Of a stretch of 64,000 nucleotides of DNA, positions 23,487 to 42,694 are shown in pieces. Under the pieces are notes generated by a model. It was not told the origin of the DNA. It made no database searches and worked only from the letters and a program-made list of their open reading frames with translations. Each line of letters starts with the position of its first letter. Positions within the stretch are counted from its first letter, which is position 1. Source of the DNA: a virus (lineage: Duplodnaviria > Caudoviricetes); IMG/VR virus record IMGVR_UViG_3300031760_000005, positions 64,001-128,000 of that record. One strand, given 5' to 3'. A program made the position numbers and the translations under genes.

Positions 23487-23870
23487 ATGAAAAATTTAAA
23501 AGATTTTTTAATAACTGAATCACAAAAGTGGTCAGCACAAGAGGTTTATGATTTTGTTGATGACATCATAAATGGAGATCATGGTGATATAGATGGTGCA
23601 GATGAATATTATGATGAAAAATCAGATGAACTAGATGAGTGGTTAAAAAATAATAAATCAAAAAAATTCATTTGTAAAACATCATCTCCTGATTATTGGG
23701 GATTTAGTTCATCAGAATGCGAAGAAGTTGATGACGATTATATTGATGAGATAGATGGACCTGAAGATAACTGTGGTTTATATATTGGTGATTCTGATAT
23801 TATGGGTCATGTTGTTCCTAATGGATATATGAACATGGATTATTTCGATTTTGCTTTTGAAGAAGAATAA
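23487..23870 (+). CDS. very acidic putative internal virion protein
   Basis: MKNLKDFLITE|S; D/E-rich body. Confidence 0.7.
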   Translation: MKNLKDFLITESQKWSAQEVYDFVDDIINGDHGDIDGADEYYDEKSDELDEWLKNNKSKKFICKTSSPDYWGFSSSECEEVDDDYIDEIDGPEDNCGLYIGDSDIMGHVVPNGYMNMDYFDFAFEEE

Positions 23871-23980: not shown

Positions 23981-24754
23981 TCAATGTTTAACATCTTGAC
24001 TGCCAAAACCGTTATCTCCACGATTTGATTCTGCCATTATTTTATTATATTCATTTTCATCTGTTTCATTATATGATGTATGGAATACAGGAATTAACAT
24101 CATTTGAGTTAATTTATCTCCACAATAAATAATATTTTGTGTAGAATGTTCAAGTGTTTCTTTTGTGAATGCTTGAGATAAATGTACAAATCCTGAATAA
24201 TCTTCATCTACTAAACATGCGCGAACATCCCATCCTTTATTACCCATACCTGATTTATTAACGTAAAGACCAGCAACGCCTATATTAAGAGCTCTAAAAA
24301 TATCAACTTCTTCATTTCCGTGTTCTTGTAAAACAGTATCTAATGCAATTTTAATACCTGAATTAATGAATAAAGTATCATTAACACGAACTTTTACGCC
24401 TACTTTATCATTATTTTTATCGTAAACTAAAAATTCATCTACAAATAAATAAACTCCTTGTATTTGTGAATATTGTTTTCTTTCTTCCAAAAATATATCA
24501 TAAAGAGCTAAAAACAAATGAATCATATTTGGTATTTGATATGTTGGAATTTCTGGATGTAATTCATTTATTACAATATTAAATTGTTCATTTAATGTTT
24601 TAATATCTTCAGATGTTTGTTTATAAGATTTTTCAAATGCTTTAAATGCCTTTTCAATTTTTTCTGGTGTATCTAAATTTGGAATATAATAATCTGATCC
24701 TGCTGATGTAAATGAATTTGATGGTTTTATACCGAATGAATTATATATTTTCAT
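23981..24754 (-). CDS. dut: trimeric dUTPase with large insertion
   Basis: SAGSD (motif I), NKSG (II), VDEDYSG (III), GDKLTQM (IV), RGDNGFGS (V). Confidence 0.85.
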   Translation of the reverse strand: MKIYNSFGIKPSNSFTSAGSDYYIPNLDTPEKIEKAFKAFEKSYKQTSEDIKTLNEQFNIVINELHPEIPTYQIPNMIHLFLALYDIFLEERKQYSQIQGVYLFVDEFLVYDKNNDKVGVKVRVNDTLFINSGIKIALDTVLQEHGNEEVDIFRALNIGVAGLYVNKSGMGNKGWDVRACLVDEDYSGFVHLSQAFTKETLEHSTQNIIYCGDKLTQMMLIPVFHTSYNETDENEYNKIMAESNRGDNGFGSQDVKH

Positions 24755-24779
24755 ATTTTAATTAAGATATATTTATATT

Positions 24780-24809
24780 AATATAGAAAAAAAAGAATCA
24801 GGAATTCAA
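24780..24809 (-). promoter_or_regulatory. putative class-I promoter overlapping a terminator hairpin
   Basis: TTGAA-N18-CTATATT; overlaps the AAAGAATCAGGAA/TTCCTGATTCTTT stem (24792-24823). Confidence 0.55.
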
Positions 24810-25759
24810 TTTCCTGATTCTTTATCATTTTCTAAATTATATGTTATTTTCTCCCAATCATTCGGATAAACATATTTTAGCATTTTTGTATTAAGAGCTG
24901 ACAATTCATTAAAACCAGGATCATCACTAGTTTTTCCTGACAATACTGCTTCAAAATCAATCATTGCTCTACTATACAATGAATTAACAATTATTGGATA
25001 ATTTTTGAAATTTTCACATAATTCAGCTAATGCTGTACATGTACCTAAACGTGTTTCAATATTATTTGAACGAATAATAGAATTTGCATTAGCTCTCCAA
25101 TTGACTTCTATTGATGGTTGTACAATAATTTTTGCAGCATTTTGAATCCAAAATGGGATTGTTCTAATATCTTCATATGTACGAGTTGTATCATAAGGAT
25201 ATGAATGAACTATATATGAAGTATATATTTTATTCCATACATTAAATCTAAGCAAACCATCTTTAAATAATGCAATTAACGCAACAGTAGCATTATCTAT
25301 TAATATTTGTCTTGGGGCTCCAGCTTTAATTTGTTTACCTGATGTTGCGTCATTAATATAAATACCATATTCAACAATATCTGCTTCATATGTTTTAATA
25401 TCATTATATGCTCTATTTATAAAATCTGTATTAACATAATAATCATCTGCATCTAAGAACATAAAATAATCTCCAGTAGCTTGGTCAATACCATATTTTC
25501 TAGCTCCGCCGCATCCTAAATTTTCATTAGGTTGAAATAATTTAACTTCAATACCATTTTTAAATGTATTAGGTGAATTAACAAATTCATTAACTATTTG
25601 CGCAGAATTATCTGTTGACATATCATCTACAATAATATATTCAACATCAATATCTTCTGAAATTATTTGTTGACTTATACTATTTAATGCTGTAGTAATA
25701 AACTTTTCACAATTATAATATGTTGTGATTATACTTACTTTATCTCGTTTTTCTGACAT
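24806..25759 (-). CDS. GT2 family glycosyltransferase
   Basis: VSIITTYYN, IIVDDMSTD, NLGCGGAR, FLDADD (DxD), VWNKIY, YED. Confidence 0.9.
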   Translation of the reverse strand: MSEKRDKVSIITTYYNCEKFITTALNSISQQIISEDIDVEYIIVDDMSTDNSAQIVNEFVNSPNTFKNGIEVKLFQPNENLGCGGARKYGIDQATGDYFMFLDADDYYVNTDFINRAYNDIKTYEADIVEYGIYINDATSGKQIKAGAPRQILIDNATVALIALFKDGLLRFNVWNKIYTSYIVHSYPYDTTRTYEDIRTIPFWIQNAAKIIVQPSIEVNWRANANSIIRSNNIETRLGTCTALAELCENFKNYPIIVNSLYSRAMIDFEAVLSGKTSDDPGFNELSALNTKMLKYVYPNDWEKITYNLENDKESGN

Positions 25760-25760
25760 A

Positions 25761-26360
25761 TTATTTAACTAATATAATTATACTCTTTTCCGAAAATCTT
25801 TCAATAACATAATAACTATATTTTGCTTTAGCTGTAGCTGGTATTGCTGTTCCAAATAGATTTTCATCTTTACCATTATAAGGCATACACATTTTACCTG
25901 GTGTGCATTTACCATTATCTATAACAATAGCTTTTCCACACAATGTAACTCTATTCCATTCAGGTCTACCTAAACGTTGTACATATTCTTTTGATGGATC
26001 ATATTTTTCATTTAGTAATGGTACATATTTATATGATTTAGCAGTCATAATAAATGGTCGTTCATTAACTTCATCGTATTGTTTAATACCAACTGCTAAA
26101 TTTTCATGTTTCATGTATGTATCACCAAATTCATTACATAAAAATTTGTTTGGCCATTCAGTATAATAATCTGATATTTCAACTGAATTAACTGTAGTTA
26201 CTCCTATAATATTATTTGAATTTGGTTTAAATAAACATATTTTTCCAGGATTATCATTATCAAACCCAACAAATCGACCAAGCTTATTTTCTTCAGGATT
26301 AGCAAACTCATAAAGTTCAGCGTATCCCATTTTTTTAAGTAAATTTCCTTGTTGTTGCAT
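25761..26360 (-). CDS. stand-alone Peptidase_G2/IMC-like chaperone domain protein
   Basis: YAELYEF...GRFVGF...IIGVT...W..KFL.NEFG...YDP...YV.R..RPEW..V.L.GK...DNG.C pattern. Confidence 0.7.
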   Translation of the reverse strand: MQQQGNLLKKMGYAELYEFANPEENKLGRFVGFDNDNPGKICLFKPNSNNIIGVTTVNSVEISDYYTEWPNKFLCNEFGDTYMKHENLAVGIKQYDEVNERPFIMTAKSYKYVPLLNEKYDPSKEYVQRLGRPEWNRVTLCGKAIVIDNGKCTPGKMCMPYNGKDENLFGTAIPATAKAKYSYYVIERFSEKSIIILVK

Positions 26361-26362
26361 AT

Positions 26363-26794
26363 TTAACGGTTATAAATTTTTAGATTTTGTCCAGCTGTCA
26401 TAATTTCTTGACGTGTCTTAATAAATTCTAATTTCATACCTGCAATGTACCAATTCATCATAGCAGAAAATATATAATTATTAATATTATCTGGAACACT
26501 ATTAAATATAATATCTGGATTATTCAAAGCATGTTCTTGTGCAACTTCATATGATATTTGCTTATTACATTTTGTATCACATGGATGTTGCTTAGCTATG
26601 CCACACACTAAAATACGATTGTTATGATGATCTTCATAAAGATTACCTATAATAGTTACTGATTGTTCAGTACCATATTTTTCGTAATCACGACCATTTA
26701 TTTTAACATATTTTGAAGACTCTCTATTTTTGTCAATTGTAGTATAACAAAATGAATTAACTAATTGTTTTGTTGTAAAATCAAATTTTTCCAT
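26363..26794 (-). CDS. hypothetical protein
   Basis: 143 aa ORF in operon. Confidence 0.75.
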   Translation of the reverse strand: MEKFDFTTKQLVNSFCYTTIDKNRESSKYVKINGRDYEKYGTEQSVTIIGNLYEDHHNNRILVCGIAKQHPCDTKCNKQISYEVAQEHALNNPDIIFNSVPDNINNYIFSAMMNWYIAGMKLEFIKTRQEIMTAGQNLKIYNR

Positions 26795-26812
26795 ATTTAC
26801 TTTATGTTTGAA

Positions 26813-27286
26813 TTAATTTTTAAATTTAATGTTTTTATAATATCTATCTTTACATTCTTTTATAATCTCTTTAGGGATATATGGTTGATTTATATCGCAA
26901 TAATCACAAGAGTCCGCATTATTAAAAAGCTTTGTAAGTGATATTTCTTTTAATTCAACAACTTCGTTATCAAAGTATATGCAGAAAAGCTTTGATAAAC
27001 CTTTACTATAACACTCTAATTCTTCTTCAACTACTTTATAACCAAGTGATTCTAATAATTTAATATCTTCATAATCAAATTTACAAATATTAAATAAAAA
27101 ATATTTAAAAGCGTTGAATGAAATAAATGCAAACATGGCATCATTATAATATGCTACTGCATGTGTATATGGACGTATTGTCTTTGTACCATGATTAAGT
27201 TTAGTCAATATTGCATTATGATTAAAATTATCTACACCAAAAATAATTTCATCATTTGTTGTATTTATTAATCTATAAGCTTTCAT
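26813..27286 (-). CDS. hypothetical protein
   Basis: 157 aa ORF in operon. Confidence 0.7.
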   Translation of the reverse strand: MKAYRLINTTNDEIIFGVDNFNHNAILTKLNHGTKTIRPYTHAVAYYNDAMFAFISFNAFKYFLFNICKFDYEDIKLLESLGYKVVEEELECYSKGLSKLFCIYFDNEVVELKEISLTKLFNNADSCDYCDINQPYIPKEIIKECKDRYYKNIKFKN

Positions 27287-27318
27287 AATTATTTTAAAAT
27301 AACTTGTTAAATTTCTTA

Positions 27319-27675
27319 TTATTTATTTATCGGTATGCATTGTTTCCAAAATTTTAAAAAATCTTCTTGTTCTTTAATTGTTAAATTTTCTGTTTGATAT
27401 ATATCGTTTATGGAATGAATTTTTAATTTATCATTATTTTTCGTATTAAATAAATAATAGAAAGCAACACCATTTTTATATTCTGAATCTAATAAAATTT
27501 TATCAAAAGTTGCTTCTAAATATGGTTCTTCTTCTAAACTATTTAATTTATTTCTAATAATAAATTTATCGCCATGTTGTGGATCTGGACGATTATGAAA
27601 ATCTTCCCAAACACTACAAATAAATGGATTAAAACATTGTACGAATTTATAGAATTCTTTAAATTGCTTATTCAT
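27319..27675 (-). CDS. hypothetical protein
   Basis: 118 aa; behind class-I motif. Confidence 0.7.
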   Translation of the reverse strand: MNKQFKEFYKFVQCFNPFICSVWEDFHNRPDPQHGDKFIIRNKLNSLEEEPYLEATFDKILLDSEYKNGVAFYYLFNTKNNDKLKIHSINDIYQTENLTIKEQEDFLKFWKQCIPINK

Positions 27676-27704
27676 AATTTATTTAATTAAAGATATCTTA
27701 ATTC

Positions 27705-27734
27705 AAAATAGATATTTATTATATACATATTCAA
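27705..27734 (-). promoter_or_regulatory. putative class-I promoter TTGAA-N18-CTATTTT
   Basis: Variant of the recurrent motif. Confidence 0.5.
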
Positions 27735-27735
27735 A

Positions 27736-28704
27736 TTATATTATTAATTCATTTTTAAAATAAGATATTGTTTCTTTTAATCCATAATCTAATGTTATAT
27801 TAGGTTGCCATCCAGTTTTATTTTTTAATTTATTAATATTTGCTTTACGTTGCATTGGATCATCTATAGGTAAATCTTCAAATATAAGTTTAGACTTTGA
27901 ATTAGTATATTTAATTACCATTTTTGCTAATTCTAATATTGTGAATTCAAAATCAGTCCCAATATTAACCGGTCCTGTAAATTCATCTTCAGTATTCATC
28001 ATCGCTTCTATACCATTTAATAAATCATCTATATATTGAAATGATCTAGTTTGAGAACCATCCCCATAAATAGTTATTGGTTTATTTTGTATTGCTTGAC
28101 AAATAAAATTAGAAATAACACGACCATCATTAGGATCCATATAAGGTCCATATGTATTGAATATTCTAATTAATTTTACTTTGCATCCACATTTTGAATA
28201 TTCATATATAATAGTTTCTGCAATACGTTTACCTTCATCATAACAAGCACGTGGGCCAAAAGTATTAACATTACCTTTATATTCTTCAGTTTGTGGATGT
28301 ACTAAAGGATCTCCATAAACTTCAGAAGTTGATGCATGTAATAATTTTGCATTATATTTAATAGTTAAATCACATATATATTCAATAGCTAAAGAACAAT
28401 GAACAGTATATAAAGGATTGATTTGATATTTTGGTGGAGAAGCCGGACAAGCTAAATTATAAATTTCATCAACATAGTCATTTAAAAAATTTTTAATAAT
28501 ATTATTTAATTCATCCCAAATGTTTACAGTAACATCACCATAAAAAAAATAATAATTAGAAAATCCTAAAAATTGATCTACGTTTTGTTTTTTACTTGTA
28601 TAAAAATTATCAATACATAATATCTTATGTCCTTGATTTAATAATTTTTTAGTTAAATTTGTTCCAATAAAACCAGCACCTCCAAATATAATAATATTTT
28701 TCAT
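27736..28704 (-). CDS. UDP-glucuronate decarboxylase (UDP-xylose synthase), extended SDR
   Basis: GGAGFIG, YNLACPASP, ASTSEVYGDP, GPRACYDEGKR, RIFNTYGP, DGRVISNF, GDGSQTRSFQY; likely start MKNII at 28704. Confidence 0.92.
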   Translation of the reverse strand: MKNIIIFGGAGFIGTNLTKKLLNQGHKILCIDNFYTSKKQNVDQFLGFSNYYFFYGDVTVNIWDELNNIIKNFLNDYVDEIYNLACPASPPKYQINPLYTVHCSLAIEYICDLTIKYNAKLLHASTSEVYGDPLVHPQTEEYKGNVNTFGPRACYDEGKRIAETIIYEYSKCGCKVKLIRIFNTYGPYMDPNDGRVISNFICQAIQNKPITIYGDGSQTRSFQYIDDLLNGIEAMMNTEDEFTGPVNIGTDFEFTILELAKMVIKYTNSKSKLIFEDLPIDDPMQRKANINKLKNKTGWQPNITLDYGLKETISYFKNELII

Positions 28705-28795: not shown

Positions 28796-29017
28796 TTATT
28801 CAGCATTATTTTTTGGTTTTTGTTGAATACTTGATTTTTTTTCTTTTTTAACTGTGCATTTATTATCTTCACATTCGGCATTCAACTTTTCTTTAATTTT
28901 ATTAGCTTCATCTTCAGATTCAAAGAAATTATACATAGTACCATCATTAAAATATACAGTATAAACATCATCATCTGAAGATTGTTCTTCTAAAATAAAT
29001 TCTTTTAAAGTCTTCAT
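28796..29017 (-). CDS. putative internal virion protein
   Basis: MKTLKEFILE|E, the closest match in the window to T4 IP capsid-targeting peptides. Confidence 0.75.
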   Translation of the reverse strand: MKTLKEFILEEQSSDDDVYTVYFNDGTMYNFFESEDEANKIKEKLNAECEDNKCTVKKEKKSSIQQKPKNNAE

Positions 29018-29036
29018 GATATTTCTATATATTTAT

Positions 29037-30113
29037 TTATAACAAATCAGAATCATCTCCTCTATCATCATCAGACTCAGAATCATCGGAATCATCTTTT
29101 GTAGATTTATCATTTTCTGATTTATCATTTTCTGATTTATCTTTATTTTCGTCTTTATCTTTATTTTCTTTATCTTCGTCGTCCTTCTTTTCTTCGCGTG
29201 ATTTTTTCTCACCAGTTAATTTAAATACTGCTGGATCATCTGTTTTATCTGCTTCTAACATATCAAGTACAGATTCAATAAGTTTTTTAACCTCATCTGG
29301 AAGTTTTACGAGAGAGTCTTTAGCAAAGTCTTGCACCCATATTTTTTTATCATCACCAGCAAATATATGCATAAGAGAACGTATATTTTCAGAAGATTGT
29401 CCTGTAGGAAGTTTTTTAGTATATTTCCAACGAAGAGCAATGGCTTCTTCTCCATTTTTAAATTTAATAGCAGCAAAATAATATTCACGAGGAAGTTCTA
29501 TTTGTTGAGATACAAGAAGTTCAAGTTGTTTAGCTGCTTTAACTTTATCTTTCATATTAATAAGTTCCATAACCTTTTCAAGAGTAACATCTTTCATTTC
29601 TTCTTCAGCGTCATCTTCTTTAATTATAGAACTTACCTCAAATTCGTCATAAAGTGATTCTTTTGTTTCAACTGGAATAGCCCATTCTCCATAACCCGTA
29701 GAAACTGATACTGCATTAGGTTCTTGTTGTACTGGAGCTATAGCAGTTTTAATATCTTCAGGAGAGAAATAAACAACATAATACATACCAAGATTAATCT
29801 TAGTAATTTTTGTTAATCCTTGTTCAATTATATATGAAGCTAAAGTTTTTCCATCATTAAACAAAGGTTCATTTAATACATTATTTATTGATTCTTCATT
29901 TACAAATTTTGAACTATGAAGTTTAATTGATACACCATCTTCACCTAATCCAACAACTACGCCAAGATGTACAGCAAATAAGTTTTTAACATTTGTAATT
30001 ATATTTTGAATAGGTGTATAATGATTAGTTACGCCTGTTCCAATAACACCATTACCTGGATTAGTATCTGATGTTTTACAATGTTCAACCAATAATTGAG
30101 TTAGTTTTTTCAT
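29037..30113 (-). CDS. putative internal/prohead core protein with acidic low-complexity tail
   Basis: MKKLTQLLVE|H; internal IIKE|D; D/E/K-rich C-terminus with DKSEN repeat. Confidence 0.65.
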   Translation of the reverse strand: MKKLTQLLVEHCKTSDTNPGNGVIGTGVTNHYTPIQNIITNVKNLFAVHLGVVVGLGEDGVSIKLHSSKFVNEESINNVLNEPLFNDGKTLASYIIEQGLTKITKINLGMYYVVYFSPEDIKTAIAPVQQEPNAVSVSTGYGEWAIPVETKESLYDEFEVSSIIKEDDAEEEMKDVTLEKVMELINMKDKVKAAKQLELLVSQQIELPREYYFAAIKFKNGEEAIALRWKYTKKLPTGQSSENIRSLMHIFAGDDKKIWVQDFAKDSLVKLPDEVKKLIESVLDMLEADKTDDPAVFKLTGEKKSREEKKDDEDKENKDKDENKDKSENDKSENDKSTKDDSDDSESDDDRGDDSDLL

Positions 30114-30144
30114 ATTTTATACTATTATATAATTTATGTTTATG

Positions 30145-30157
30145 TAATTAAAAATAA
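30145..30157 (-). promoter_or_regulatory. putative class-II promoter TTATTTTTAATTA
   Basis: Recurrent motif upstream of capsid-tagged genes. Confidence 0.5.
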
Positions 30158-30165
30158 CTATAAAT

Positions 30166-30831
30166 TTAAAATTGTCTCCAAAAATGAAATATTTGTTGGA
30201 GTGTAGCTTTTGAAAAGTGCCCTTCAGTAAAACACGCTGTTGGAATTAAACGTGTTGGTAATACATATGAAGCGCCTCTTAAAACTGGAATATACATTTT
30301 AACGCCAAATCCAATTTTTGCATTTGTTTTTGCTAAATGTTTTACTGCTTGATAAGATATCCATGTATTTGGTTTACCAGTAACTTCATTGAAATTTTTA
30401 TCAAAAAATGGTTTAAAATGCTGATAAACTGCTTCAATAATTCTTGTTCTGGTAAATGGTGGATAATAATGTAAATTAATACCAACTTCGCGAATATTAC
30501 CGTCATCCGTTCTTGTTATTCCACAAAATAATGTTAAAGGAGTAGCGTCATAATATTCAAGTTCTTCTTTAAATTTTGGTTGAGAATAATGAAATAATAC
30601 AATTTGACCAGGAAGAAGATATCTTTTTGTTGGTTTATTCAATTTTAATAATTCTTGATATGCTAATTTAGAACGAATAACAGTTGGACGTTTAGCTAAT
30701 GGATGATTATCAATAGCTTCATTAATGTGAAAATCTTTAATCTCATCTTCACTATATATTTTTCTATCTAAATCTTTTAGATTAAATACATGTCCTAATG
30801 TTGTTTGTTCTGGTTTATAAATTATTGGCAT
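30166..30831 (-). CDS. T4 gp2-like DNA end protector protein
   Basis: PGQIVLFHY.....K..L.YYD..PL...GINLHYYPP pattern typical of the gp2 family. Confidence 0.7.
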   Translation of the reverse strand: MPIIYKPEQTTLGHVFNLKDLDRKIYSEDEIKDFHINEAIDNHPLAKRPTVIRSKLAYQELLKLNKPTKRYLLPGQIVLFHYSQPKFKEELEYYDATPLTLFCGITRTDDGNIREVGINLHYYPPFTRTRIIEAVYQHFKPFFDKNFNEVTGKPNTWISYQAVKHLAKTNAKIGFGVKMYIPVLRGASYVLPTRLIPTACFTEGHFSKATLQQIFHFWRQF

Positions 30832-31142
30832 ACTAAAATCATTAAAATATTTATAAATGTACCTATAACTGAACCAATTATATCAGCTACAATATCTTTA
30901 AATTCAACTTTAGTTTTACGTAATTTTAAATCAATAATATATTCTTTAAATATTCCTATTAAAACTGTTATAACAAATGATATGCCTAAACTTATATAAG
31001 GATTTAATTTAAAACTTAAAAAAATTATAAATAATATATTAGTAATTAATGTTGAACAATATGAATGTAAAAATACATCTTTAGTAGTTGAATCTACAAA
31101 ATTATATATTTTATCAATAATTTTTAATAAAAATTCTTTCAT
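30822..31142 (-). CDS. small multi-TM membrane protein (VanZ/YfiM-like)
   Basis: Three hydrophobic segments with KE..D and DIVADIIG motifs. Confidence 0.6.
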   Translation of the reverse strand: MKEFLLKIIDKIYNFVDSTTKDVFLHSYCSTLITNILFIIFLSFKLNPYISLGISFVITVLIGIFKEYIIDLKLRKTKVEFKDIVADIIGSVIGTFINILMILVCQ

Positions 31143-31616
31143 TTATTTATCATAATATTTTTGAATATAATGAAATACATCTGATATATATTTCCCTTGA
31201 TTTTCTTTTATTGATTCTTTGCCAAACCATTTATATTCAGTATGTTCTTTCGACAATTTTATTTCTGGTTTAGATTCCATTTCTATAATAAAATATTCAG
31301 TATAAGAAACTACTTTATCATCATTACCAGGTCCTAAATGTTCCTGTTTTCCAAAATATTTCATTGAATATTCTTCATTAAATGATAATGTTATTCCAGT
31401 TTCTTCTTTTATTTCTCTAATTAGTGCATCTTTAGTTGTTTTATCTGATTCATTTACTGAACCTCCAACAAACCCCCATTTACCTTTAAATAAATCTACA
31501 TAATTAGATCTTTTAAGTAAAAGAATTTCGTCAGTATCTTTATTGACTAATATTCCATCTACATAATGTTTTATTTCATCTTTACTTTCTTTTATATAGT
31601 CAATTAATTGTTTCAT
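31143..31616 (-). CDS. Nudix hydrolase with capsid-targeting-like N-terminus
   Basis: Nudix box GG.V...D.....A..REIKEETGI and LSKEHTEYKW; starts MKQLIDYIKE|S. Confidence 0.88.
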   Translation of the reverse strand: MKQLIDYIKESKDEIKHYVDGILVNKDTDEILLLKRSNYVDLFKGKWGFVGGSVNESDKTTKDALIREIKEETGITLSFNEEYSMKYFGKQEHLGPGNDDKVVSYTEYFIIEMESKPEIKLSKEHTEYKWFGKESIKENQGKYISDVFHYIQKYYDK

Positions 31617-31632
31617 TATCTATTATATTTAT

Positions 31633-32058
31633 TTAATATCCAATACATAAACTCATGTCATATGTATTAAATGGATCTTCAACTGTACCAGCAGCATGAC
31701 AATTAAGTGTTCCTACCATAAATGGATTTTCAGAACCTTTAACAAATATTTCTACTTTATATTGTTTCCATTGAGACATTCCATCCTTTGATTTACGATA
31801 TCCGCCATCATCTGGAGCTACCGAAACATCATATTCATGCTCAGGATTTTTTATAGTTTTTAAAGCGTCATCAATATCTTGTCTAACTAATTTAACACCA
31901 GCCCAATTATCATCGTGATAATAATGACCTGTGGTTTTAGTTTTATCTAATTGTTTATAGATGGCATTTTGAATTTTTTTCTTTTCTGGAGCTTTAATAG
32001 ATTTATCCAATTCTCCATTAGAATATGATTCAAAAATTTTATCTTTTAATGTTTTCAT
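31633..32058 (-). CDS. putative internal virion protein
   Basis: MKTLKDKIFE|S. Confidence 0.7.
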   Translation of the reverse strand: MKTLKDKIFESYSNGELDKSIKAPEKKKIQNAIYKQLDKTKTTGHYYHDDNWAGVKLVRQDIDDALKTIKNPEHEYDVSVAPDDGGYRKSKDGMSQWKQYKVEIFVKGSENPFMVGTLNCHAAGTVEDPFNTYDMSLCIGY

Positions 32059-32089
32059 TGACGTTATTCAATATTTTTTTATAAATCTT

Positions 32090-33259
32090 TTAATCCATTG
32101 CACCAAATCCATCTACAGGTTTGCCATCATCACCATCTAATCCTTTATCTTGTAATTTGACTTTACCATAAGATGTTCCATTAGCGCCAATAACTTCAAA
32201 TTCACATGTTGTATGCATTCCTGAAAGCCAACTACCGGTATTACGTGATAATTCTTTAATTTCAGGCATTTTATTGTCAGATTCTAAATAAGCTTTTGCA
32301 GCTAATTTATAAAGATTATCAACACCCCAAGATATACTAGAATAACTACCGAATGATTTTTCCAAAACCTTTTGAACATCATCTTTAACTTTTTCAATAG
32401 CTTCTGCTAATTTTTTAGCTTCTTCATCTTTCTTTATTTTTTCTGCAAATATCTTTTCCCATTTCTTATAGTTTTGTTCTGTTGCTTCTAAGTCATCTTC
32501 AACTGTATCTAATATAGAAATAATATCTTTATATAAATCTGATTTTTTAAACGCTTCACGTAATTTCTTTATTTTCTTAGAATCTTTTTCATATTCAGCT
32601 TCAGCCTTTTGCCATACTTTATTAGATTTTTTACGCATGGCTTCTTCATTTCTTGAATGAGATGTTTGATCCCACATTTCTTGATATTTACTATTTACCG
32701 AATCAGTTTTTAAAATGTTAAATCTATCATTAAATTCTGGAATATTAACATTATAAGCTTGGGCAATAACACTTAATGCAAGATAAATAGAAAAAGTAAA
32801 TCCTGTTGATTCATACCAGAATAATGTAACATCTTTATCCCATGAATTTCTTTTTTCTGGTTGACGTGCTTTTGTAAAACTTGCAGCTTGAATATCATCT
32901 GTTTCTAATGCAATTCTTGCTTCTTTTGTTGCCTTTTCTACAAAATCAAAGAAATCTTTATTGCCATTTTCATCTTTTCCATAGAAATTATCAAATGTAC
33001 AATTTTGGGCATTAAGAATAAAATTATTATGACCTTGTTTAGAATTCATTGCTGTTTTAAGTTTATCTACAAGAATTTCAAAATTCTCGGTATTTATTTT
33101 AATTACAGATTCTTCATATTCTTTATATTTATTCTTCATTTCTTCCTTTGTATTTTTAGGCATGCCCGGATAGAAAAATGGTTTACTCATTGATTGTGGT
33201 AAATCTAAATATTTACCATCTTCTTTTGATTCAAATAAAAAATCAATTAAATGTTTCAT
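32090..33259 (-). CDS. putative internal virion protein (coiled-coil rich)
   Basis: MKHLIDFLFE|S; 389 aa. Confidence 0.7.
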   Translation of the reverse strand: MKHLIDFLFESKEDGKYLDLPQSMSKPFFYPGMPKNTKEEMKNKYKEYEESVIKINTENFEILVDKLKTAMNSKQGHNNFILNAQNCTFDNFYGKDENGNKDFFDFVEKATKEARIALETDDIQAASFTKARQPEKRNSWDKDVTLFWYESTGFTFSIYLALSVIAQAYNVNIPEFNDRFNILKTDSVNSKYQEMWDQTSHSRNEEAMRKKSNKVWQKAEAEYEKDSKKIKKLREAFKKSDLYKDIISILDTVEDDLEATEQNYKKWEKIFAEKIKKDEEAKKLAEAIEKVKDDVQKVLEKSFGSYSSISWGVDNLYKLAAKAYLESDNKMPEIKELSRNTGSWLSGMHTTCEFEVIGANGTSYGKVKLQDKGLDGDDGKPVDGFGAMD

Positions 33260-33265
33260 TATTTA

Positions 33266-33892
33266 TTATTCAATATTTTTATATCTTTGTTCGACATCAC
33301 CATTTGCTCTAATACGAATACGTTCCTGAACGGATGTATGATTCATTCTTTCTCCTCTAAAAATTGTTTTAATTATTATATCAACCTTTGTACCATTTTC
33401 TTTTATCATCCAAACTGCCCATAAATTCATGGTTCTTGGTCTAGCGCCGCAATATTCAACTTCGCCATTTTTATCTTTGTTATTATTTAACCAGCATTGA
33501 CATTCTATTGTCCATGCATCTACTTTACGTTGTTTATATTCAAATGGCTTAAACTTGCCATCATAGTTCATTTCCATTATGTCATCCCAAGACCATCGGA
33601 ACATATTAACAATTTCGTATTGACCAATTCGCTTACCACCATCACCACCTTTTTCTACTGGTCGATCTTGACGTTGCGTAGCATGATCTCCCATTCTTAA
33701 TTCATCACCATCATTAGATGTCCAAACGACGCGATTTCCACTTTTAGTATGATGCCAATCATTACCTTCTAATATAAATTGTTGGAATTCATCATCAAGT
33801 AATTCTAAAGATGATTCATCCAATTGAAAAATAATTCGACCAAGTTTATTCTCGAAATTATTTCTATTTAAAAATTCGGTAATGTTTTTCAT
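33266..33892 (-). CDS. putative internal virion protein, possible DUF4258/BECR-like RNase domain
   Basis: MKNITEFLN..., FILE|G near residue 40; HA..R..R...I...EI...IIIKTI pattern. Confidence 0.5.
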   Translation of the reverse strand: MKNITEFLNRNNFENKLGRIIFQLDESSLELLDDEFQQFILEGNDWHHTKSGNRVVWTSNDGDELRMGDHATQRQDRPVEKGGDGGKRIGQYEIVNMFRWSWDDIMEMNYDGKFKPFEYKQRKVDAWTIECQCWLNNNKDKNGEVEYCGARPRTMNLWAVWMIKENGTKVDIIIKTIFRGERMNHTSVQERIRIRANGDVEQRYKNIE

Positions 33893-33895
33893 TGT

Positions 33896-34285
33896 TTACC
33901 AACCACATTTTTCGGAATTAGCATAATCCCACTCAATCATGTAATCTTCCTCTTCTTTAGTTAATGTTTCTTGATCACTAACACGGGCTATTAAACTACC
34001 AGTAACAAATTTAGCTAAACGTTTTCTTCCTTCTTTTGATAATTTATTTGTTGCTTTAGTTACTTTAAGAATAGCTTGGCATAATTTAGCTACAACTGAA
34101 GATGATTCAAGTTTTGCAATGTCAAATATACCCTTTTGGTGTTTCTTTATTAAATTTTGAACTAATGGCCAATATTGTTGTTTATATATTGTCTCATTAT
34201 TATCCATCTCCATACATGCATCAAAAATTATCTTATTATCAGCATCTTGAGATGATTCTGTTAAATATGTTTTTATATCTTTCAT
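33896..34285 (-). CDS. putative internal virion protein
   Basis: MKDIKTYLTE|S. Confidence 0.7.
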   Translation of the reverse strand: MKDIKTYLTESSQDADNKIIFDACMEMDNNETIYKQQYWPLVQNLIKKHQKGIFDIAKLESSSVVAKLCQAILKVTKATNKLSKEGRKRLAKFVTGSLIARVSDQETLTKEEEDYMIEWDYANSEKCGW

Positions 34286-34290
34286 AATAA

Positions 34291-34569
34291 TTAAAATATA
34301 CTTGGTATTTTTGATAAAATAGAATTTGAAAAATCAAGATGCCATTTATCGATTTTATCTTTCTTATGAGCTTCACAGTATTTTGATATTTCATCAAATT
34401 CAACATTCATTATTTCAACGCCATCTTTATCGATTTCAGTTACATCTGATTGATCTTTGCCATTACCTTTCCAAATTAGAATTTCACGAACTCTATTTTC
34501 GGTATAATCCCAAAGACACCATTTACCTTTTGGAGTTGATTCATTTATAATATTAGTTAATGTTTTCAT
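34291..34569 (-). CDS. putative internal virion protein
   Basis: MKTLTNIINE|S. Confidence 0.7.
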   Translation of the reverse strand: MKTLTNIINESTPKGKWCLWDYTENRVREILIWKGNGKDQSDVTEIDKDGVEIMNVEFDEISKYCEAHKKDKIDKWHLDFSNSILSKIPSIF

Positions 34570-34586
34570 ATTTAATTTAGATATTT

Positions 34587-35090
34587 TTAATCTTCTAACT
34601 CAACAACTAATTTCTTTGTTAGATTTTCTTTTTGTTTATTTAATTCATTTATATTTTCCATTAATTTAGATATTTCATCATCAATTTCACGAATTTGATC
34701 AGCATATTTTGATTTAATAGCACCAATTACAGCATTTTTTGAAATACCGGCAAAATACCATGTACCATCTCCATGAATTCGTTTAATAGAAAATTCTTTA
34801 TTTTTTTCATTCGGTTGATCAAATATCAAAAAATGGCTAATTTTATATGGATTTGATTCTAAATCAACACATGTTGTATTAATTTTTCCTTTGGCAAATG
34901 AATCTTCTATACCTCTATTTTCAACAGATTTAATTTTTATTTGTGAACATTTATGTTTAGAATTTTCTTTACTAATTCTATCCATAACTTTATCTGTATC
35001 ATGTACAACATATAATATCGTACCTTTATCGATATTTGTATATATGTTTGGCAAATTTCCTTCTTTAATTAAATGACTTAAATTTTTCAT
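34587..35090 (-). CDS. putative internal virion protein with C-terminal coiled coil
   Basis: MKNLSHLIKE|G. Confidence 0.7.
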   Translation of the reverse strand: MKNLSHLIKEGNLPNIYTNIDKGTILYVVHDTDKVMDRISKENSKHKCSQIKIKSVENRGIEDSFAKGKINTTCVDLESNPYKISHFLIFDQPNEKNKEFSIKRIHGDGTWYFAGISKNAVIGAIKSKYADQIREIDDEISKLMENINELNKQKENLTKKLVVELED

Positions 35091-35099
35091 AAATAATAT

Positions 35100-35399
35100 T
35101 TATACTTGTATTTCATTGAAATTTTTAATTTTAAATTTTCCAGATACAGTATCTTCAGCATATAAAGTTACTTCATATTTTGTATCTATATAGTCTCCAA
35201 CAAATACTAATTTATCATCAGATGATTCTTCTTCATCAAAATCAAAACCTAATTTGTACATTACATCTTTAATATCGTCAATTTTGGTCATTTTAAATCC
35301 ATGTTTAATGCTACCAAACTCTCTAAGTGCAAGTCCAATTTCTTCATGAAGATCTTCATCTTGAGTTGATTCTAATATAAATTGTTTAATGTCTTTCAT
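35100..35399 (-). CDS. acidic putative internal virion protein
   Basis: MKDIKQFILE|S. Confidence 0.7.
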   Translation of the reverse strand: MKDIKQFILESTQDEDLHEEIGLALREFGSIKHGFKMTKIDDIKDVMYKLGFDFDEEESSDDKLVFVGDYIDTKYEVTLYAEDTVSGKFKIKNFNEIQV

Positions 35400-35428
35400 A
35401 ATCTTTATTTATATAATTATTTATTGTT

Positions 35429-35857
35429 TTATCTTTTACAATCAAAGAAATAATGAGTATCTGTTTCTGATAAATAAATAAACATTATTTTTTGATAATC
35501 ATCCAATGCACAAACTATTTCAGAAGTATCATCTAATTTATTTTCGGATTTAAGTTTATCAATTATCTTTAAAGCTTTTTTAGGAATTTTTCTATCACCA
35601 TCTTGTATTTTATCTAAAATATTTGTTACTTCGATTACTTTACAATTGTTATTTATCCAGTTTGCCATTTGCGTTGCATCCCACATATGATCTTTATCCA
35701 CTGTGTTTTTGCAATCTCCAAAGTATTTATAATTTCTATAAGATGGTACTCCATCATACATTTCTGGGTTTTCTAATGATGAATCTATAGGAATATTATT
35801 TAAATCAAGTTTTTCAATTAAAAATGATTCAAACATATAATCAATTAAATTTTTCAT
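35429..35857 (-). CDS. putative internal virion protein
   Basis: MKNLIDYMFE|SFLIE|K. Confidence 0.7.
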   Translation of the reverse strand: MKNLIDYMFESFLIEKLDLNNIPIDSSLENPEMYDGVPSYRNYKYFGDCKNTVDKDHMWDATQMANWINNNCKVIEVTNILDKIQDGDRKIPKKALKIIDKLKSENKLDDTSEIVCALDDYQKIMFIYLSETDTHYFFDCKR

Positions 35858-35895
35858 ATTTAATCTTCATATTTTTCCATTTTTTCTAAAGAAGA

Positions 35896-36705
35896 TTATC
35901 TTTTAACAACTAATTTTTCTGCTTGCATTATTTCACGTACTTTTTCTGCGTTAAATACAAATGTTACTAAGAATGTATATAAATCATCAATATTATCAAT
36001 AGAAACATCTAATACTTGTGACCATTTTATATCTGATCTTGACTCAAGTTTACCAAGTAATTTAGCAATTTCTTCTAATGAAGATTTTATTGAATTTTCT
36101 TTACCATTAGTTCCAGTATGTTTAACTGTATAAACTTGTACTTCACCATTAAGTTTTGTTTGGATAGTTGGACAATATAAATCAAATTCAGAAACAATTT
36201 CAGTTACTGCTTTATAAATTTTTTTATTTTGACAAGTTGCTACATCATAAAGTGATTTAACACTTTCTGAATTAGCTTCACTATTTGGCATATCTCCATT
36301 TTCACGATGAATTACTTCACCACACAAATCATAATTTTTATAACCAAAATAAAGTGGAGTAGTATGTGTTTTTTTAACATCTGGTACAAAATTAAATCTA
36401 TCAAATTGATTATGAATATCATAAAGAGTCATTACTTTTGGTGTGGTATCTAATTCACGAGTAACTTCTTCTTCTGAATTAAATCTACCAAATGAATTAC
36501 ATTGTATTTTTACAGGTTCCTCACAAGTAGGACAATCACAACAAGAATTACCACAATCTGGATCTGGAAGGCAATTACAACAACATTCGTTAATTACTTG
36601 TCCTTCTAAATTAGCAATTTTTTCTTTAAGTTCTTCAGAAATTCCATTTAATGAAACTTTTTTAACACTTAAGTTATCTATATATTTAGATAATAATTTT
36701 ATCAT
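35896..36705 (-). CDS. hypothetical protein with Cys-rich segment
   Basis: VINE|CCCNCLPDPDCGNSCCDCPTC. Confidence 0.75.
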   Translation of the reverse strand: MIKLLSKYIDNLSVKKVSLNGISEELKEKIANLEGQVINECCCNCLPDPDCGNSCCDCPTCEEPVKIQCNSFGRFNSEEEVTRELDTTPKVMTLYDIHNQFDRFNFVPDVKKTHTTPLYFGYKNYDLCGEVIHRENGDMPNSEANSESVKSLYDVATCQNKKIYKAVTEIVSEFDLYCPTIQTKLNGEVQVYTVKHTGTNGKENSIKSSLEEIAKLLGKLESRSDIKWSQVLDVSIDNIDDLYTFLVTFVFNAEKVREIMQAEKLVVKR

Positions 36706-36747
36706 AACTTTATATATATTTTTTTAATAATAATTTAATATAGATAA

Positions 36748-37212
36748 TTATTGGAAAAACTTTTCAGTAACGATAATAAATTTAGCATTATGTTTATGTG
36801 CAAATTCATTTGCTGCTTTCCATTTATCTGTATTAACTATCCATGCTTCTTTTAACCATCTAGAATCTTGCTCTACAGGTTTTATTGTTTGATTATATGG
36901 TTTTATTTCTACTATAATTTTAGTTCCATCATAAGTTTCAATAACATAATCTGGATAATAATTTTGCTCCGATTGAGTTAATCTATTATAATATTTAATA
37001 GATATTGGTTCGCTTGCCCAACGTTTAATTTTTGGATTATTTTCACAAAACATAATAAATTGATATTCTAAACCTGAACGATAAATAATGGGTTCATTTT
37101 TACATGATCTAAATATTTTTTTACACATTGATTCATTTATATAACCCTGATGATATTTACTATTTTTTTGTGGTTTTAGATTTTTTATATTGTTATTAAA
37201 TTTCTTAGGCAT
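36748..37212 (-). CDS. T4 gp4-like head completion nuclease (TnsA-like PD-(D/E)xK)
   Basis: IIYRSGLE...FCE.NP.I..WASE...YYPDY...VEIKP...N..KW.AA..FA......F.I.TE. Confidence 0.88.
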   Translation of the reverse strand: MPKKFNNNIKNLKPQKNSKYHQGYINESMCKKIFRSCKNEPIIYRSGLEYQFIMFCENNPKIKRWASEPISIKYYNRLTQSEQNYYPDYVIETYDGTKIIVEIKPYNQTIKPVEQDSRWLKEAWIVNTDKWKAANEFAHKHNAKFIIVTEKFFQ

Positions 37213-39332: not shown

Positions 39333-40730
39333 ATGAAAAACTTAGGTCAATTTATTAATGAAAATGATTTAAAAAAAGTTGAAGGTAATGCACCTAAACC
39401 AGATCCAAAGAGTAAAAATAGAATTAAATGGGCACTTGATGAACCAACTAATGATGACGCATCAGATGATATTGATATCCATTCTAAAGAAAATACAAAA
39501 TCTGTAAAACAATTAATTGATAAATTTAGAACAGAAGAACCTTTCTTTATACAAGGTGAAGCTGGTTGGGGTAAAACATCTATCGTAAAAAAACTTGCTA
39601 AAAAATTTGGTAAAAAAGTTATTACAGTATATCTTGATAAAGCTGAGGCAACAGACCTTGGTGGTATACCTGTTCCTGTTGAAGGTAATAAATCAAAAGC
39701 TAAAGTAAAAAATGCTGTAGGTGAATTAGAAGAAAGAGAATTTGCTGCCCAAATTAAGGCTATGCCATCTTGGGCAAAAATAATGTATGATAATCCAGAT
39801 ACAGACTTCTTATTATTCTTTGATGAAATGAACCAAGCTATGCCTGATGTAATGAATGCTCTTATGCCTATTGTTTTGGAAAACGAAATTTGTGAAATTA
39901 AGTTCGACAACTTTTTTGTTGGTGCAGCAGGTAACTATGAACATGAAAACAGAGGAGCTATTTCTGAATTATCTGGACCACTTAAATCTCGTTTCAAACC
40001 AATCATTGAATGGACATCAGGTGAAGAAGCTTGGCCACAAGCATTTAAACATTTACACGCAAAATGGGATAAATATTTGTCAAAAGAATTTATTAACTTA
40101 TTTGAAAAAAATGGCGCTGAAATATTTGAAAACCCACGTGAACTTGAGCATAAAGTATTTCAATATATTTATCGTATAAAAATGACTAATGATGATGGAT
40201 ATGAAGACGATAATGATGCAGAAAAATATTTATGGCGTCTTGAAGATTTAGCTAAAGAAAATTTATCAAGAACAGCAAAAGCTAAATTAAGCGAATTAGC
40301 TGATGCTATGTTTGCATTTGTTGCTGGTACAGATTATAATGGAAAAACATCTAAACCAAAACGTGAATCAAATAAAGATATTAATATGATTCCTGAACAA
40401 GTAAGAGTTACTGTAGAACAAGCAATGAAAACTGGTTATCAAAGTATAAAAGTTGGTGATAAAGAATATAAATTTGGTATTTCTAAAGAAAATATTGGAG
40501 AAATAGTTAATGAGAAAGAGTGTAATGCAGAAATGTTACAAAAACTTATTAAGAATTTAGAATTAGGAGGTAAGAAATTTAAATATGAAAAATCTCCTGA
40601 TTGGAAAAAACTTGGTTTAGAAGATCCATTAGATGATAAATGGAATTTTAAAATTGGCTCAGATACAAAATTAGGTAATAATTCAGAACCTAAAAAGAAA
40701 AAAACTATGAAAGATTACGCAAATTCATAA
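39333..40730 (+). CDS. MoxR-like AAA+ ATPase with capsid-targeting-like N-terminus
   Basis: Walker A GEAGWGKT, DLGGIP, Walker B LLFFDEMN, AAGN, PLKSRF; starts MKNLGQFINE|N. Confidence 0.9.
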   Translation: MKNLGQFINENDLKKVEGNAPKPDPKSKNRIKWALDEPTNDDASDDIDIHSKENTKSVKQLIDKFRTEEPFFIQGEAGWGKTSIVKKLAKKFGKKVITVYLDKAEATDLGGIPVPVEGNKSKAKVKNAVGELEEREFAAQIKAMPSWAKIMYDNPDTDFLLFFDEMNQAMPDVMNALMPIVLENEICEIKFDNFFVGAAGNYEHENRGAISELSGPLKSRFKPIIEWTSGEEAWPQAFKHLHAKWDKYLSKEFINLFEKNGAEIFENPRELEHKVFQYIYRIKMTNDDGYEDDNDAEKYLWRLEDLAKENLSRTAKAKLSELADAMFAFVAGTDYNGKTSKPKRESNKDINMIPEQVRVTVEQAMKTGYQSIKVGDKEYKFGISKENIGEIVNEKECNAEMLQKLIKNLELGGKKFKYEKSPDWKKLGLEDPLDDKWNFKIGSDTKLGNNSEPKKKKTMKDYANS

Positions 40731-40751
40731 AAAATATTTAAGGATTAATAT

Positions 40752-41030
40752 ATGGAAGTTTTAGATAATGTTATCTATTTTGATAACGATGATGAATTTT
40801 ACGATTATTGCGTAGAACCTAAATTAATAACGATTCCATTTGTTGATAAAAATGGTGATACTAGATATTATACAGATTTTAATTTTACTAATGTATATAA
40901 TAATGATGTTAAAGATGGAAAAATTTTTATTATAAAAGATGAAAATTCGCAAATTTATAAACATAAAGCAGTATCATATCGTACTATAACAAAAGAAATT
41001 TCTAATTTAGAACCTTGGTATAAAAATTAA
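40752..41030 (+). CDS. hypothetical protein within AAA-VWA operon
   Basis: 92 aa ORF between the AAA and VWA genes. Confidence 0.7.
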   Translation: MEVLDNVIYFDNDDEFYDYCVEPKLITIPFVDKNGDTRYYTDFNFTNVYNNDVKDGKIFIIKDENSQIYKHKAVSYRTITKEISNLEPWYKN

Positions 41031-41041
41031 TAAGTAAATTT

Positions 41042-42694
41042 ATGGAAATTAAAAGTTCATTACTAAATTCAGATACATTTTCAGAAGTTAAAAAAAGTTT
41101 AATAGAAGTTTCAGAAATTGATAATAGACAGGATTTTAGAGTTGACGTAATAGAATTTATTGACTTCAATTCAGATAATAATGATGACCAATTCTTCTGG
41201 GACATGCTAGAATTTGTAAGATTTCTTAATCCTGCTGATAATAGTGTTGCATACACTACTCCAAATCATTTAATTTATTTAAATGCACCAAGTCATAATT
41301 ATGATACAGAAAACGATTGGGAATTTATATATGATCATGAATGTTTACATCAATTATGGGACACATTTGCTGTAGGTGAGGAAATAAAAACAAATGGAAT
41401 TAAATATGACCATCAAGTATTAAATATCGCATCTGACTGTGTTATTAATGATTATCTCTCATATATTCGTAAAAAGAAAGAACCAGAAGGATTAATAAAT
41501 AGAGAATATTTACAAAATGAATATGGAGTTACATATGATCGTAAAGTAGATACTCAATATAGCTTATATCTTAAATTACTGGAACATGCTGAAGAACTAA
41601 AAAAAGATAAACGTTGTCAAAATGATATTGATCAAAATAATAAAAAGAATGATCAACAAGAAAAAAATAACGGAAATAGTAATAGTAATAATTCAAAAAA
41701 CTCAAATTCAAAAAATAGTAATTCAGATAAAGAAAATAACGGAGGGAAAGAATCAGAAGATAAAAATAATGAAAAAGGTGGTAAAAATACCGATAGTAAG
41801 ACAAATGATAAAGCTGATAAAGAAAAAATAGACAATAATGATAAAGAAAAGGGAGGTAAAGGTAAACAAGCAGGCGAAGGGGCATCTAGTGATACATCTC
41901 AAACATCTTTAGACTTAGATGAAATTCGTAAAAATGCTGAAGCTATTATTAAGAAATATCAAAATAAAATTGGTGGTGATTTTGGTAAGTTTATTGAAAA
42001 ATGTAAATCAGCAAAAACACTTAGAGAATCAGGATTAGTAGTAAAAGTTAATAAAGCTACATCTGCATGGAATAGTTCTCTTCAATCTTATTGTAGTGCA
42101 TTTATAAAAAGTAAAGTATTTGCGTTACATCGTCAATATAAACGTACATATACTCGTGTAAAACGTGGTCATGGTATTGTTAAATTTGGAGAACCTATTA
42201 TTCCAGGCAAGAAGATTTTAGATAATAAATTGTTAATCAAAACTGCATTTTATGTTGATAGATCTGCAAGTATGTCAGGTGTAATTGATGAAGTATTTGA
42301 AGCGGCGTATATTATTGCAGAAGGATTGAAAAAACAATTTAGTAAAGATAAAGTTGTAGAAGATCTTGTATTTAAAATGCTTGCATTTGATGATGATATT
42401 CGTGAAGTTAAATGGGGAAATAAAATGAATGTAGGAGGCGGTACATGTCCATTTGACGCAATTTTGAATTACATTAGAAAGAATACAAATGAATATATGA
42501 TTAATATTATTATTACCGACGCAGAATTTGACATAAACGAAAATAAAATTACTAAATTCTTGCAAGATATTGATGGTTGTGTAATATTCGTTACAAATAG
42601 TACTTCTTCAGATGTTAAAGAAATTGCTCAAAAGAAAGAAAATAAACTTAAATTATTTTATATACAAGCAGATAATAATTTTACAACGGATTAA
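41042..42694 (+). CDS. DUF2201-like HEXXH metallopeptidase + VWA domain protein
   Basis: VAYT, HECLH, NIASDCVIN, low-complexity N/K/D linker, MIDAS VDRSASM, GGGT, IIITD. Confidence 0.88.
   Translation: MEIKSSLLNSDTFSEVKKSLIEVSEIDNRQDFRVDVIEFIDFNSDNNDDQFFWDMLEFVRFLNPADNSVAYTTPNHLIYLNAPSHNYDTENDWEFIYDHECLHQLWDTFAVGEEIKTNGIKYDHQVLNIASDCVINDYLSYIRKKKEPEGLINREYLQNEYGVTYDRKVDTQYSLYLKLLEHAEELKKDKRCQNDIDQNNKKNDQQEKNNGNSNSNNSKNSNSKNSNSDKENNGGKESEDKNNEKGGKNTDSKTNDKADKEKIDNNDKEKGGKGKQAGEGASSDTSQTSLDLDEIRKNAEAIIKKYQNKIGGDFGKFIEKCKSAKTLRESGLVVKVNKATSAWNSSLQSYCSAFIKSKVFALHRQYKRTYTRVKRGHGIVKFGEPIIPGKKILDNKLLIKTAFYVDRSASMSGVIDEVFEAAYIIAEGLKKQFSKDKVVEDLVFKMLAFDDDIREVKWGNKMNVGGGTCPFDAILNYIRKNTNEYMINIIITDAEFDINENKITKFLQDIDGCVIFVTNSTSSDVKEIAQKKENKLKLFYIQADNNFTTD

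Follow-up and report, generated by a model that had tools for sequence, protein, structure and literature searches.

A T4-type capsid-targeting tag predicted on about one gene in six of an uncultured large-phage contig

Results

Tagged genes in the window

The window analysed here, 64,000 nucleotides of viral DNA, lies on one 157,695-bp IMG/VR virus contig, of which it is bases 64001-128000; the guanine-plus-cytosine (GC) content of the contig is 25.9%. Twenty of its genes encode proteins that open with a shared peptide, usually ten residues long with glutamate at position 10, which we refer to as the tag; 18 of them fit the strict pattern M-[KR]-x-[LI]-x-x-x-[LIMF]-x-E and two are variants. 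Across the whole contig the strict pattern opens 33 of 207 open reading frames (ORFs), or roughly one gene in six. A sequence-only reading of the window had listed about 20 such N-termini, and every sequence that it quoted was present. For genes on the minus strand that reading gave the low (3') end of the ORF, so that, for example, the ORF beginning MKTLKEFILE occupies 28796-29017 (-) and has its start codon at 29017.

A tight run of genes on one strand (28796-37212) contains, in order, a gp4-like gene and an unknown one, a block of nine that are tagged, a small gene, a gp2-like gene and two further tagged genes. The gp4-like gene (36748-37212 (-); phrog_218, E = 1.3e-32) encodes an untagged head-closure protein with a TnsA-like N-terminal domain, and the gp2-like gene (30166-30831 (-); phrog_429, E = 5.9e-18) encodes an untagged DNA end protector; these family matches bear out the earlier placement of the nine-gene tagged block beside gp2- and gp4-like genes. 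In T4, for comparison, genes 2 and 4 are neighbours, with ipI at a distance of about 2 kb. The nine tagged genes, all on the minus strand, encode proteins of 142 residues (MKNLIDYMFE; 35429-35857), 99 residues (MKDIKQFILE; 35100-35399), 167 residues (MKNLSHLIKE; 34587-35090), 92 residues (MKTLTNIINE; 34291-34569), 129 residues (MKDIKTYLTE; 33896-34285), 208 residues (MKNITEFLNR, the variant that lacks Glu10; 33266-33892), 389 residues (MKHLIDFLFE; 32090-33259) and 141 residues (MKTLKDKIFE; 31633-32058), and finally a NUDIX hydrolase (MKQLIDYIKE; 31143-31616), identified by domain match and homologs, whose NUDIX domain begins at residue 21. The two tagged genes beyond the gp2-like gene encode a 358-residue protein (MKKLTQLLVE; 29037-30113 (-)), which a homolog search assigned to a large conserved family, and the 73-residue protein that begins MKTLKEFILE. 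Adjoining these is a gene for an NAD-dependent epimerase/dehydratase (27736-28704 (-); GDP-mannose 4,6-dehydratase-like, E = 2e-42), which belongs to a run of untagged minus-strand genes at 23981-28704.

The other tagged genes are dispersed. Five encode DUF285 leucine-rich-repeat proteins, one of 201 residues at 16840-17445 (-), with KLQIGS directly after the tag (PF03382, E = 1e-54), and four in tandem at 42775-45240 (+) (42775-43386, 43370-44200, 44184-44726 and 44710-45240; DUF285 matches). Just downstream of the first of these is a single ORF of 3,727 residues (5534-16717 (-)). A 541-residue protein (MKNISQCIFE; 21836-23461 (+)) had no family match, and the gene that follows (23487-23870 (+)) carries an 11-residue variant, MKNLKDFLITE, whose end is still I-T-E. 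The remaining two encode a 465-residue AAA_5-type ATPase identified by domain match (MKNLGQFINE; 39333-40730 (+)) and a 105-residue protein (MRNIEDILKE; 46478-46795 (-)).

The tag is conserved as a peptide on unrelated proteins

The tag was far commoner than expected by chance. About 0.07 strict tags would be expected from amino-acid composition among the 207 ORFs in which 33 were found, and on the same contig the strict pattern occurred at none of 865 internal methionines and at none of 753 other, non-selected ORFs. A stricter pattern searched at the DNA level gave 22 matches, against 0 when it was reversed. In each tagged gene the tagged methionine is the first ATG, GTG or TTG after the upstream stop codon.

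Positions 2, 4, 7, 8 and 10 of the tag are conserved and the residues at 3, 5, 6 and 9 are free; position 11 is often serine. All 33 strict tags end [LIMF]-x-E at residues 8-10, and 9- and 11-residue variants retain [LIVF]-x-E; on the contig, two proteins have the 11-residue form ending I-x-E and one tag lacks Glu10. The proteins behind the tag share little else. The bodies of 25 of the 33 are mutually unrelated (blastp, E < 1e-3) and the other eight are DUF285 paralogs; in all, members of at least 26 unrelated families of the contig begin with the tag. A polar linker after Glu10 was a small effect only.

The codons at tag positions 4 and 8 vary (TTA, CTT, CTA, ATA and ATT). No nucleotide motif or promoter common to the tagged genes was found upstream of them, and TATAAATA was not enriched there. 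Because codons vary at conserved positions and no upstream motif is shared, we conclude that conservation lies in the peptide, and that this is the level on which selection acts. Certain k-mers were enriched upstream of tagged genes in relatives; they derive from tandem DUF285 genes and were rejected as a shared element.

The tag matches the T4 capsid targeting sequence

In T4, a 10-residue capsid targeting sequence (CTS), MKTYQEFIAE (PMC8442874), is carried by IPII and IPIII, with related sequences on IPI and Alt, and is removed by gp21 (Mullaney & Black 1996, cited in PMC8442874; PMC9026906; PMC3012670). Positions 4 and 7 of the CTS govern targeting, positions 8 and 10 govern processing, and gp21 cleaves after L/I-x-E (PMC9026906). 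The positions conserved in the tag include these four that were mapped as functional in T4.

As a cross-check, a position-specific scoring matrix (PSSM) built from the contig's 25 tags outside the DUF285 family was scanned over the N-termini of all 271 T4 ORFs. Three ORFs scored at least 8 bits, the only ones to do so, and ipII and ipIII ranked second and third among them; gp24 was 6th and ipI 11th, and the median score was about -18 bits. The first place went to gp61.1 (MKTFKEFIKE), a 54-residue hypothetical protein (gene 61.1; T4 NC_000866, 18966-19130 (-)). By its match to the profile, gp61.1 may be an unrecognised CTS-bearing protein of T4.

The T4 mapping also bears on the window variant at 33266-33892. 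In T4, Asp at CTS position 10 stops processing and not targeting (PMC9026906); by analogy, the protein that begins MKNITEFLNR may be targeted but not cleaved.

Relatives encode a gp21-type protease fused to a repeat-bearing scaffold

The contig, about 55% complete according to CheckV, carries genes for a T4-type portal and a large terminase, and by tblastn the portal has more than 1,700 relatives among T4-like phages. Its closest matches in GenBank were uncultured huge phages, Sphingomonas phage PAU and Tenacibaculum phages (31-41% identity), and no DNA near-identical to the window was found among GenBank phages. The portal relatives include a contig of 410,106 bp that is 97% complete, hereafter the 410-kb relative, and a contig of 163 kb. 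A Shine-Dalgarno-like motif (GGAG, GAGG or AGGA at -20 to -4) precedes only 7 of the 207 genes of the contig, a paucity that we take to suggest a host that does not use such motifs, presumably one such as the Bacteroidota.

Because the contig is only about 55% complete and does not carry the protease gene, the protease for this phage had to be deduced from relatives. Those sharing 65-79% portal identity are members of a clade with a gene for an S77 prohead protease. In the 410-kb relative this is a 565-residue protein with an S77 domain (PF03420, 46.8 bits; phrog_207, E = 1.5e-41), and its gene is followed by those for the major capsid protein, sheath and tube. Nine clade proteases align well, with His76 (GELEHPN) and the Ser of ISSRGAGS invariant. 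Their N-terminus reads M-x-x-K-x-C-[ML]-[VI]-[FY]-E10-T, in which Glu10 is invariant; T4 gp21 likewise has LIE-9 (PMC9026906). The best PDB match to a profile of the clade protease was T4 gp21 itself (entry 5jbl, E = 0.0018). Single-sequence PDB searches with the clade protease and major capsid protein gave no matches, and for the protease the profile was needed. Clade major capsid proteins retain W-x-[KQ]-[MIL]-L-x-E near residue 17.

On the contig itself, about 3 kb before the window, a 144-residue protein (contig 60552-60986 (-)) aligns by hhalign with the clade protease profile (E = 4e-5) and represents a diverged, catalytically dead paralog of the prohead-protease domain, other residues standing in place of the catalytic His and Ser. 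The 163-kb relative has a counterpart with 42% identity, and SPN3US is likewise reported to carry a protease paralog that has diverged (PMC5694885).

In this clade the protease is fused to a C-terminal scaffold part, which contains 6-11 [FYW][LIV]xE motifs where about 1.2 are expected and where the maximum in 500 shuffles was 4-6. Most of these motifs are exact 12-residue tandem repeats, W[IV]xEEFAPEVQN, present in 6-10 copies (at about residues 345-432 in one of these proteins). In the cultured Tenacibaculum phages pT24 and PTm1 the corresponding stretch shows nothing beyond degenerate W-containing repeats. As a positive control, the T4 scaffold protein gp22 contains 16 [LI]xE motifs against 5.8 expected, and T4 internal proteins contain one each. 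The scaffold motifs, spaced 12 residues apart, led us to recognise in the last four residues of the tag (aromatic-[ILV]-x-E) the repeating unit of the very protein that the protease has to cut up; some tags read D-W-I-N-E, matching the WINE of the scaffold.

Tagged genes also lie close to the protease gene. In the 410-kb relative, the tag or a close variant opens 21 of the 25 ORFs within 15 kb upstream of the gene, at the locus that also encodes the major capsid protein, and tagged genes are found just upstream of the protease gene in most other relatives too.

The tag is retained across the clade as its cargo changes

Strict tags open 80 of 517 ORFs in the 410-kb relative and 35 of 237 in the 163-kb relative. 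The same PSSM from the contig's 25 tags found 86 and 32 N-termini in these two genomes, respectively, and matched about 0.03% of internal positions. Orthologs retain the tag pattern while the tag letters vary and the bodies diverge to 29-50% identity, and the pattern persists across relatives of 25-35% GC in which protease identity is near 50%. The 105-residue protein at 46478-46795 is kept in both large relatives; about half of the contig's tagged cargo genes have no homolog in either.

Two families could be followed in depth. The 358-residue protein has a 9-, 10- or 11-residue tag on 117 of its 120 best homologs, always ending [LIVF]-x-E. The NUDIX hydrolase has a strict tag on 104 of 120 homologs, and about eight more have a tag with Tyr4 and Trp7 (MKRYTNWITE). 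Three NUDIX homologs have no tag and begin directly with the NUDIX fold, which indicates that the tag is a separable module. The Tyr4/Trp7 tags are nearer to T4 MKTYQEFIAE than are the tags of the window.

In seven other AT-rich large phages the DNA-level pattern matched 0-5 times (PTm1 0, pT24 2, Lak-B4 1, PAU 0, XacN1 0, LR756500 5 and LR756504 1), which makes the expansion specific to this clade. Neither a cultured member of the clade nor a cultured relative with an expanded tag set was found: the nearest cultured phages (Tenacibaculum PTm1 and pT24 and Sphingomonas PAU), like Xanthomonas XacN1 and Lak-B4, were all at background counts.

The tagged ATPase gene of the window belongs to a three-gene module (39333-42694 (+)) that is conserved in the 410-kb relative and consists of the AAA_5 ATPase, a 92-residue protein and a 550-residue protein. 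The last gave a weak match to the HNH-endonuclease family phrog_1314.

Predicted cargo

The tagged proteins of the contig comprise the NUDIX hydrolase (with Nudt16-like matches), the AAA_5 ATPase, eight DUF285 repeat proteins and about 22 unknowns; searches with Pfam and PHROGs recognised only NUDIX, AAA_5 and DUF285. A Pfam search of 86 tagged proteins from all three genomes, excluding the main DUF285 paralog families, added further domains: ferritin/rubrerythrin, HAD, phosphoribosyltransferase and three more DUF285 proteins; the others matched no family. The mature tagged proteins average 22 kDa, so that one copy of each amounts to 0.7 MDa for the contig and 1.9 MDa for the 410-kb relative. 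Tagged genes account for about 13% of coding capacity.

Structure searches were made for the larger unknowns. An AF2 model of the 358-residue protein had a predicted local distance difference test (pLDDT) score of 67, and Foldseek against the PDB returned nothing below E = 0.1 (the top row was PC4). A generic alpha/beta domain was considered for this protein from a VIA-align wide search (best Z 6.1) and no function was assigned. Searches of the ESM Atlas with the 389- and 541-residue proteins gave no usable match.

Discussion

We consider it likely that M-K-x-[LI]-x-x-[YFW]-[ILV]-x-E is a T4-type capsid-targeting propeptide that is cut after Glu10 and is carried here on a much larger and different cargo. 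The profile match to T4, the L/I-x-E end, the clade protease and the gene context together lend computational support to the central proposal of the sequence-only reading, which was a portable T4-type capsid-targeting tag. We infer from these sequences a route in which the tag would dock each protein onto the prohead scaffolding core during head assembly; the gp21-type (S77) protease of the clade would then cut after Glu10, where [ILV]-x-E follows an aromatic P4 residue; and the tag would depart, leaving the mature protein in the capsid to enter the host together with the DNA and to act there. By this route, dozens of different proteins would probably be delivered with the phage DNA.

Several observations weigh against this proposal. 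Packaging 16-17% of all gene products would go far beyond any described case. Neither PF03420 (the S77 protease) nor gp23 had a match on the contig, although the contig is only partly complete. The cargo is mostly acidic, with a median mature isoelectric point (pI) of about 5.4 and only 8% of proteins above pI 8; T4 internal proteins are highly basic (PMC8442874). The ortholog of the AAA ATPase in the 410-kb relative has no tag, so this protein does not always need one. Internal [LI]xE sites are only weakly depleted (observed/expected about 1.0 in tagged and 1.19 in untagged proteins; pooled z about -2.3), and the four-residue cleavage motif showed no consistent depletion in tagged bodies. As this depletion was weak and inconsistent, we did not use it as support.

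The strongest competing explanation accepts that the tag targets proteins to the prohead core and is cut there, but assigns most tagged proteins to assembly, as parts of the core or scaffold or as size determinants, or has them broken down and expelled; they would not be delivered as effectors. In T4, gp67, gp68 and gp22 of the core are likewise cut by the protease and for the most part exit the head (PMC9026906; PMC5694885), many of the tagged proteins here combine small size with acidity, and the scaffold itself bears tag-like sites. We nevertheless judge this explanation unlikely. The tagged set includes folded enzymes and binders without a plausible role in assembly (NUDIX, AAA ATPase and DUF285, and the ferritin-like, HAD and phosphoribosyltransferase proteins of relatives), the absence of homologs for half of the tagged genes in two large relatives is a turnover atypical of assembly components, and each protein has a single N-terminal site, as in T4 internal proteins, and not many.

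It is less probable still that the shared N-terminus serves a process outside the capsid, such as recognition by a modifying enzyme or chaperone, localisation to the membrane or elsewhere, or regulated degradation. The tag, with its hydrophobic residues at positions 4, 7 and 8, could form an amphipathic helix that many kinds of receptor might use, but it is the same motif as the CTS defined by experiment in T4, the protease-scaffold protein repeats its final four residues in tandem, and tagged and head genes are grouped together. Beside the tags no other gene appeared consistently as a partner, though no systematic search for one was made. Least of all do we favour a tag with no targeting function, arising as a by-product of cassette recombination at gene starts or of selection on translation initiation in an AT-rich genome. 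AT-rich genomes commonly have AAA (Lys) as the second codon, and an MK start is also seen in many of the untagged genes; shared gene starts could presumably also aid shuffling in hyperplastic regions, such as the internal-protein loci of T-even phages. What is conserved, however, is a class of amino acid and not nucleotides, with no shared upstream element; the pattern survives the range of GC content and protease divergence among relatives; other AT-rich large phages do not show the expansion; and Glu10 and the position-8 residue are kept when tag length changes.

We take the tag to represent a known mechanism in a new, much enlarged form. Like the T4 CTS, it is a 10-residue N-terminal sequence on unrelated proteins that is conserved at positions 2, 4, 7, 8 and 10 and ends [LI]-x-E; a gp21-family protease is encoded in relatives, and head genes 2 and 4 are close by, as they are for T4 ipI. 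Unlike the experimentally defined T4 CTS, which is carried by a handful of proteins, the tag occurs, as a putative targeting signal, on 33 genes in half a genome here and on 80-86 of 517 in a relative. The cargo also differs, being mostly acidic with enzymes and large DUF285 families where that of T4 is highly basic; position 4 is usually Leu or Ile in place of the Tyr of T4, and the clade protease is fused to a W-[IV]-x-E-repeat scaffold.

Polymorphic internal-protein loci of T-even phages encode unrelated basic proteins that bear sequences resembling the CTS (PMC9026906; PMC3012670). The arrangement here is similar in that a conserved tag heads fast-changing, clustered, non-homologous cargo genes, of which about half have no homolog in close relatives; it differs in that the clusters are far larger, number several per genome and occur in distant uncultured jumbo phages without Shine-Dalgarno sequences. 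In phiKZ, 201phi2-1 and SPN3US, ejection and inner-body proteins are processed by gp21-related proteases (PMC5694885, PMC7411985, PMC10052503), and those giant phages likewise package tens of proteins, with proteases that cut after Glu at a three-residue motif. The motif in those phages is S/A-x-E, and most of their propeptides span 79 to more than 100 residues and are not shared between proteins (PMC5694885); here P3 is Ile, Leu, Val or Met and never Ser or Ala, and the propeptide is a shared 10-mer. Membership of the packaged set in phiKZ, 201phi2-1 and SPN3US cannot be read from the N-terminus. The Dar anti-restriction proteins of phage P1, which are packaged into the head (PMC9024508, PMC12810830), resemble the proposed cargo in that they enter the capsid and are delivered with the DNA. 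Their loading proceeds through a hierarchy of partner proteins and is not known to involve a common short cleavable tag. Reviews have proposed the CTS as a general protein-loading route of T4-like phages (PMC9026906). Our literature search found no paper that links capsid targeting with megaphages, jumbo phages or huge phages, and the Jug-phage paper does not mention N-terminal tags.

A broader reading, which we offer only tentatively, is that the tag makes the injected proteome readable from sequence, up to 86 proteins or about 17% of genes in the 410-kb relative and including about 45 hypervariable leucine-rich-repeat binders. The tag would imitate the 12-residue repeat of the scaffold (aromatic-[IV]-x-E), so that cargo would dock at the repeat sites and be freed by the same protease, and head assembly would be a general, evolvable delivery system in an abundant gut and rumen phage clade.

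Should the tag function as it does in T4, sequence alone would be enough to list the proteins that these widespread uncultured giant phages inject, opening the first minutes of infection, which are otherwise hard to study for phages that cannot be cultured. Candidates for host takeover and anti-defence would also become available as a large pool, already sorted, most of them without a known fold or family. The tag is near enough to that of T4 for T4 to serve as both test bed and delivery vehicle. A mechanism used by a few T4 proteins would, on the same condition, be one that can grow to occupy about 13% of a phage's coding capacity.

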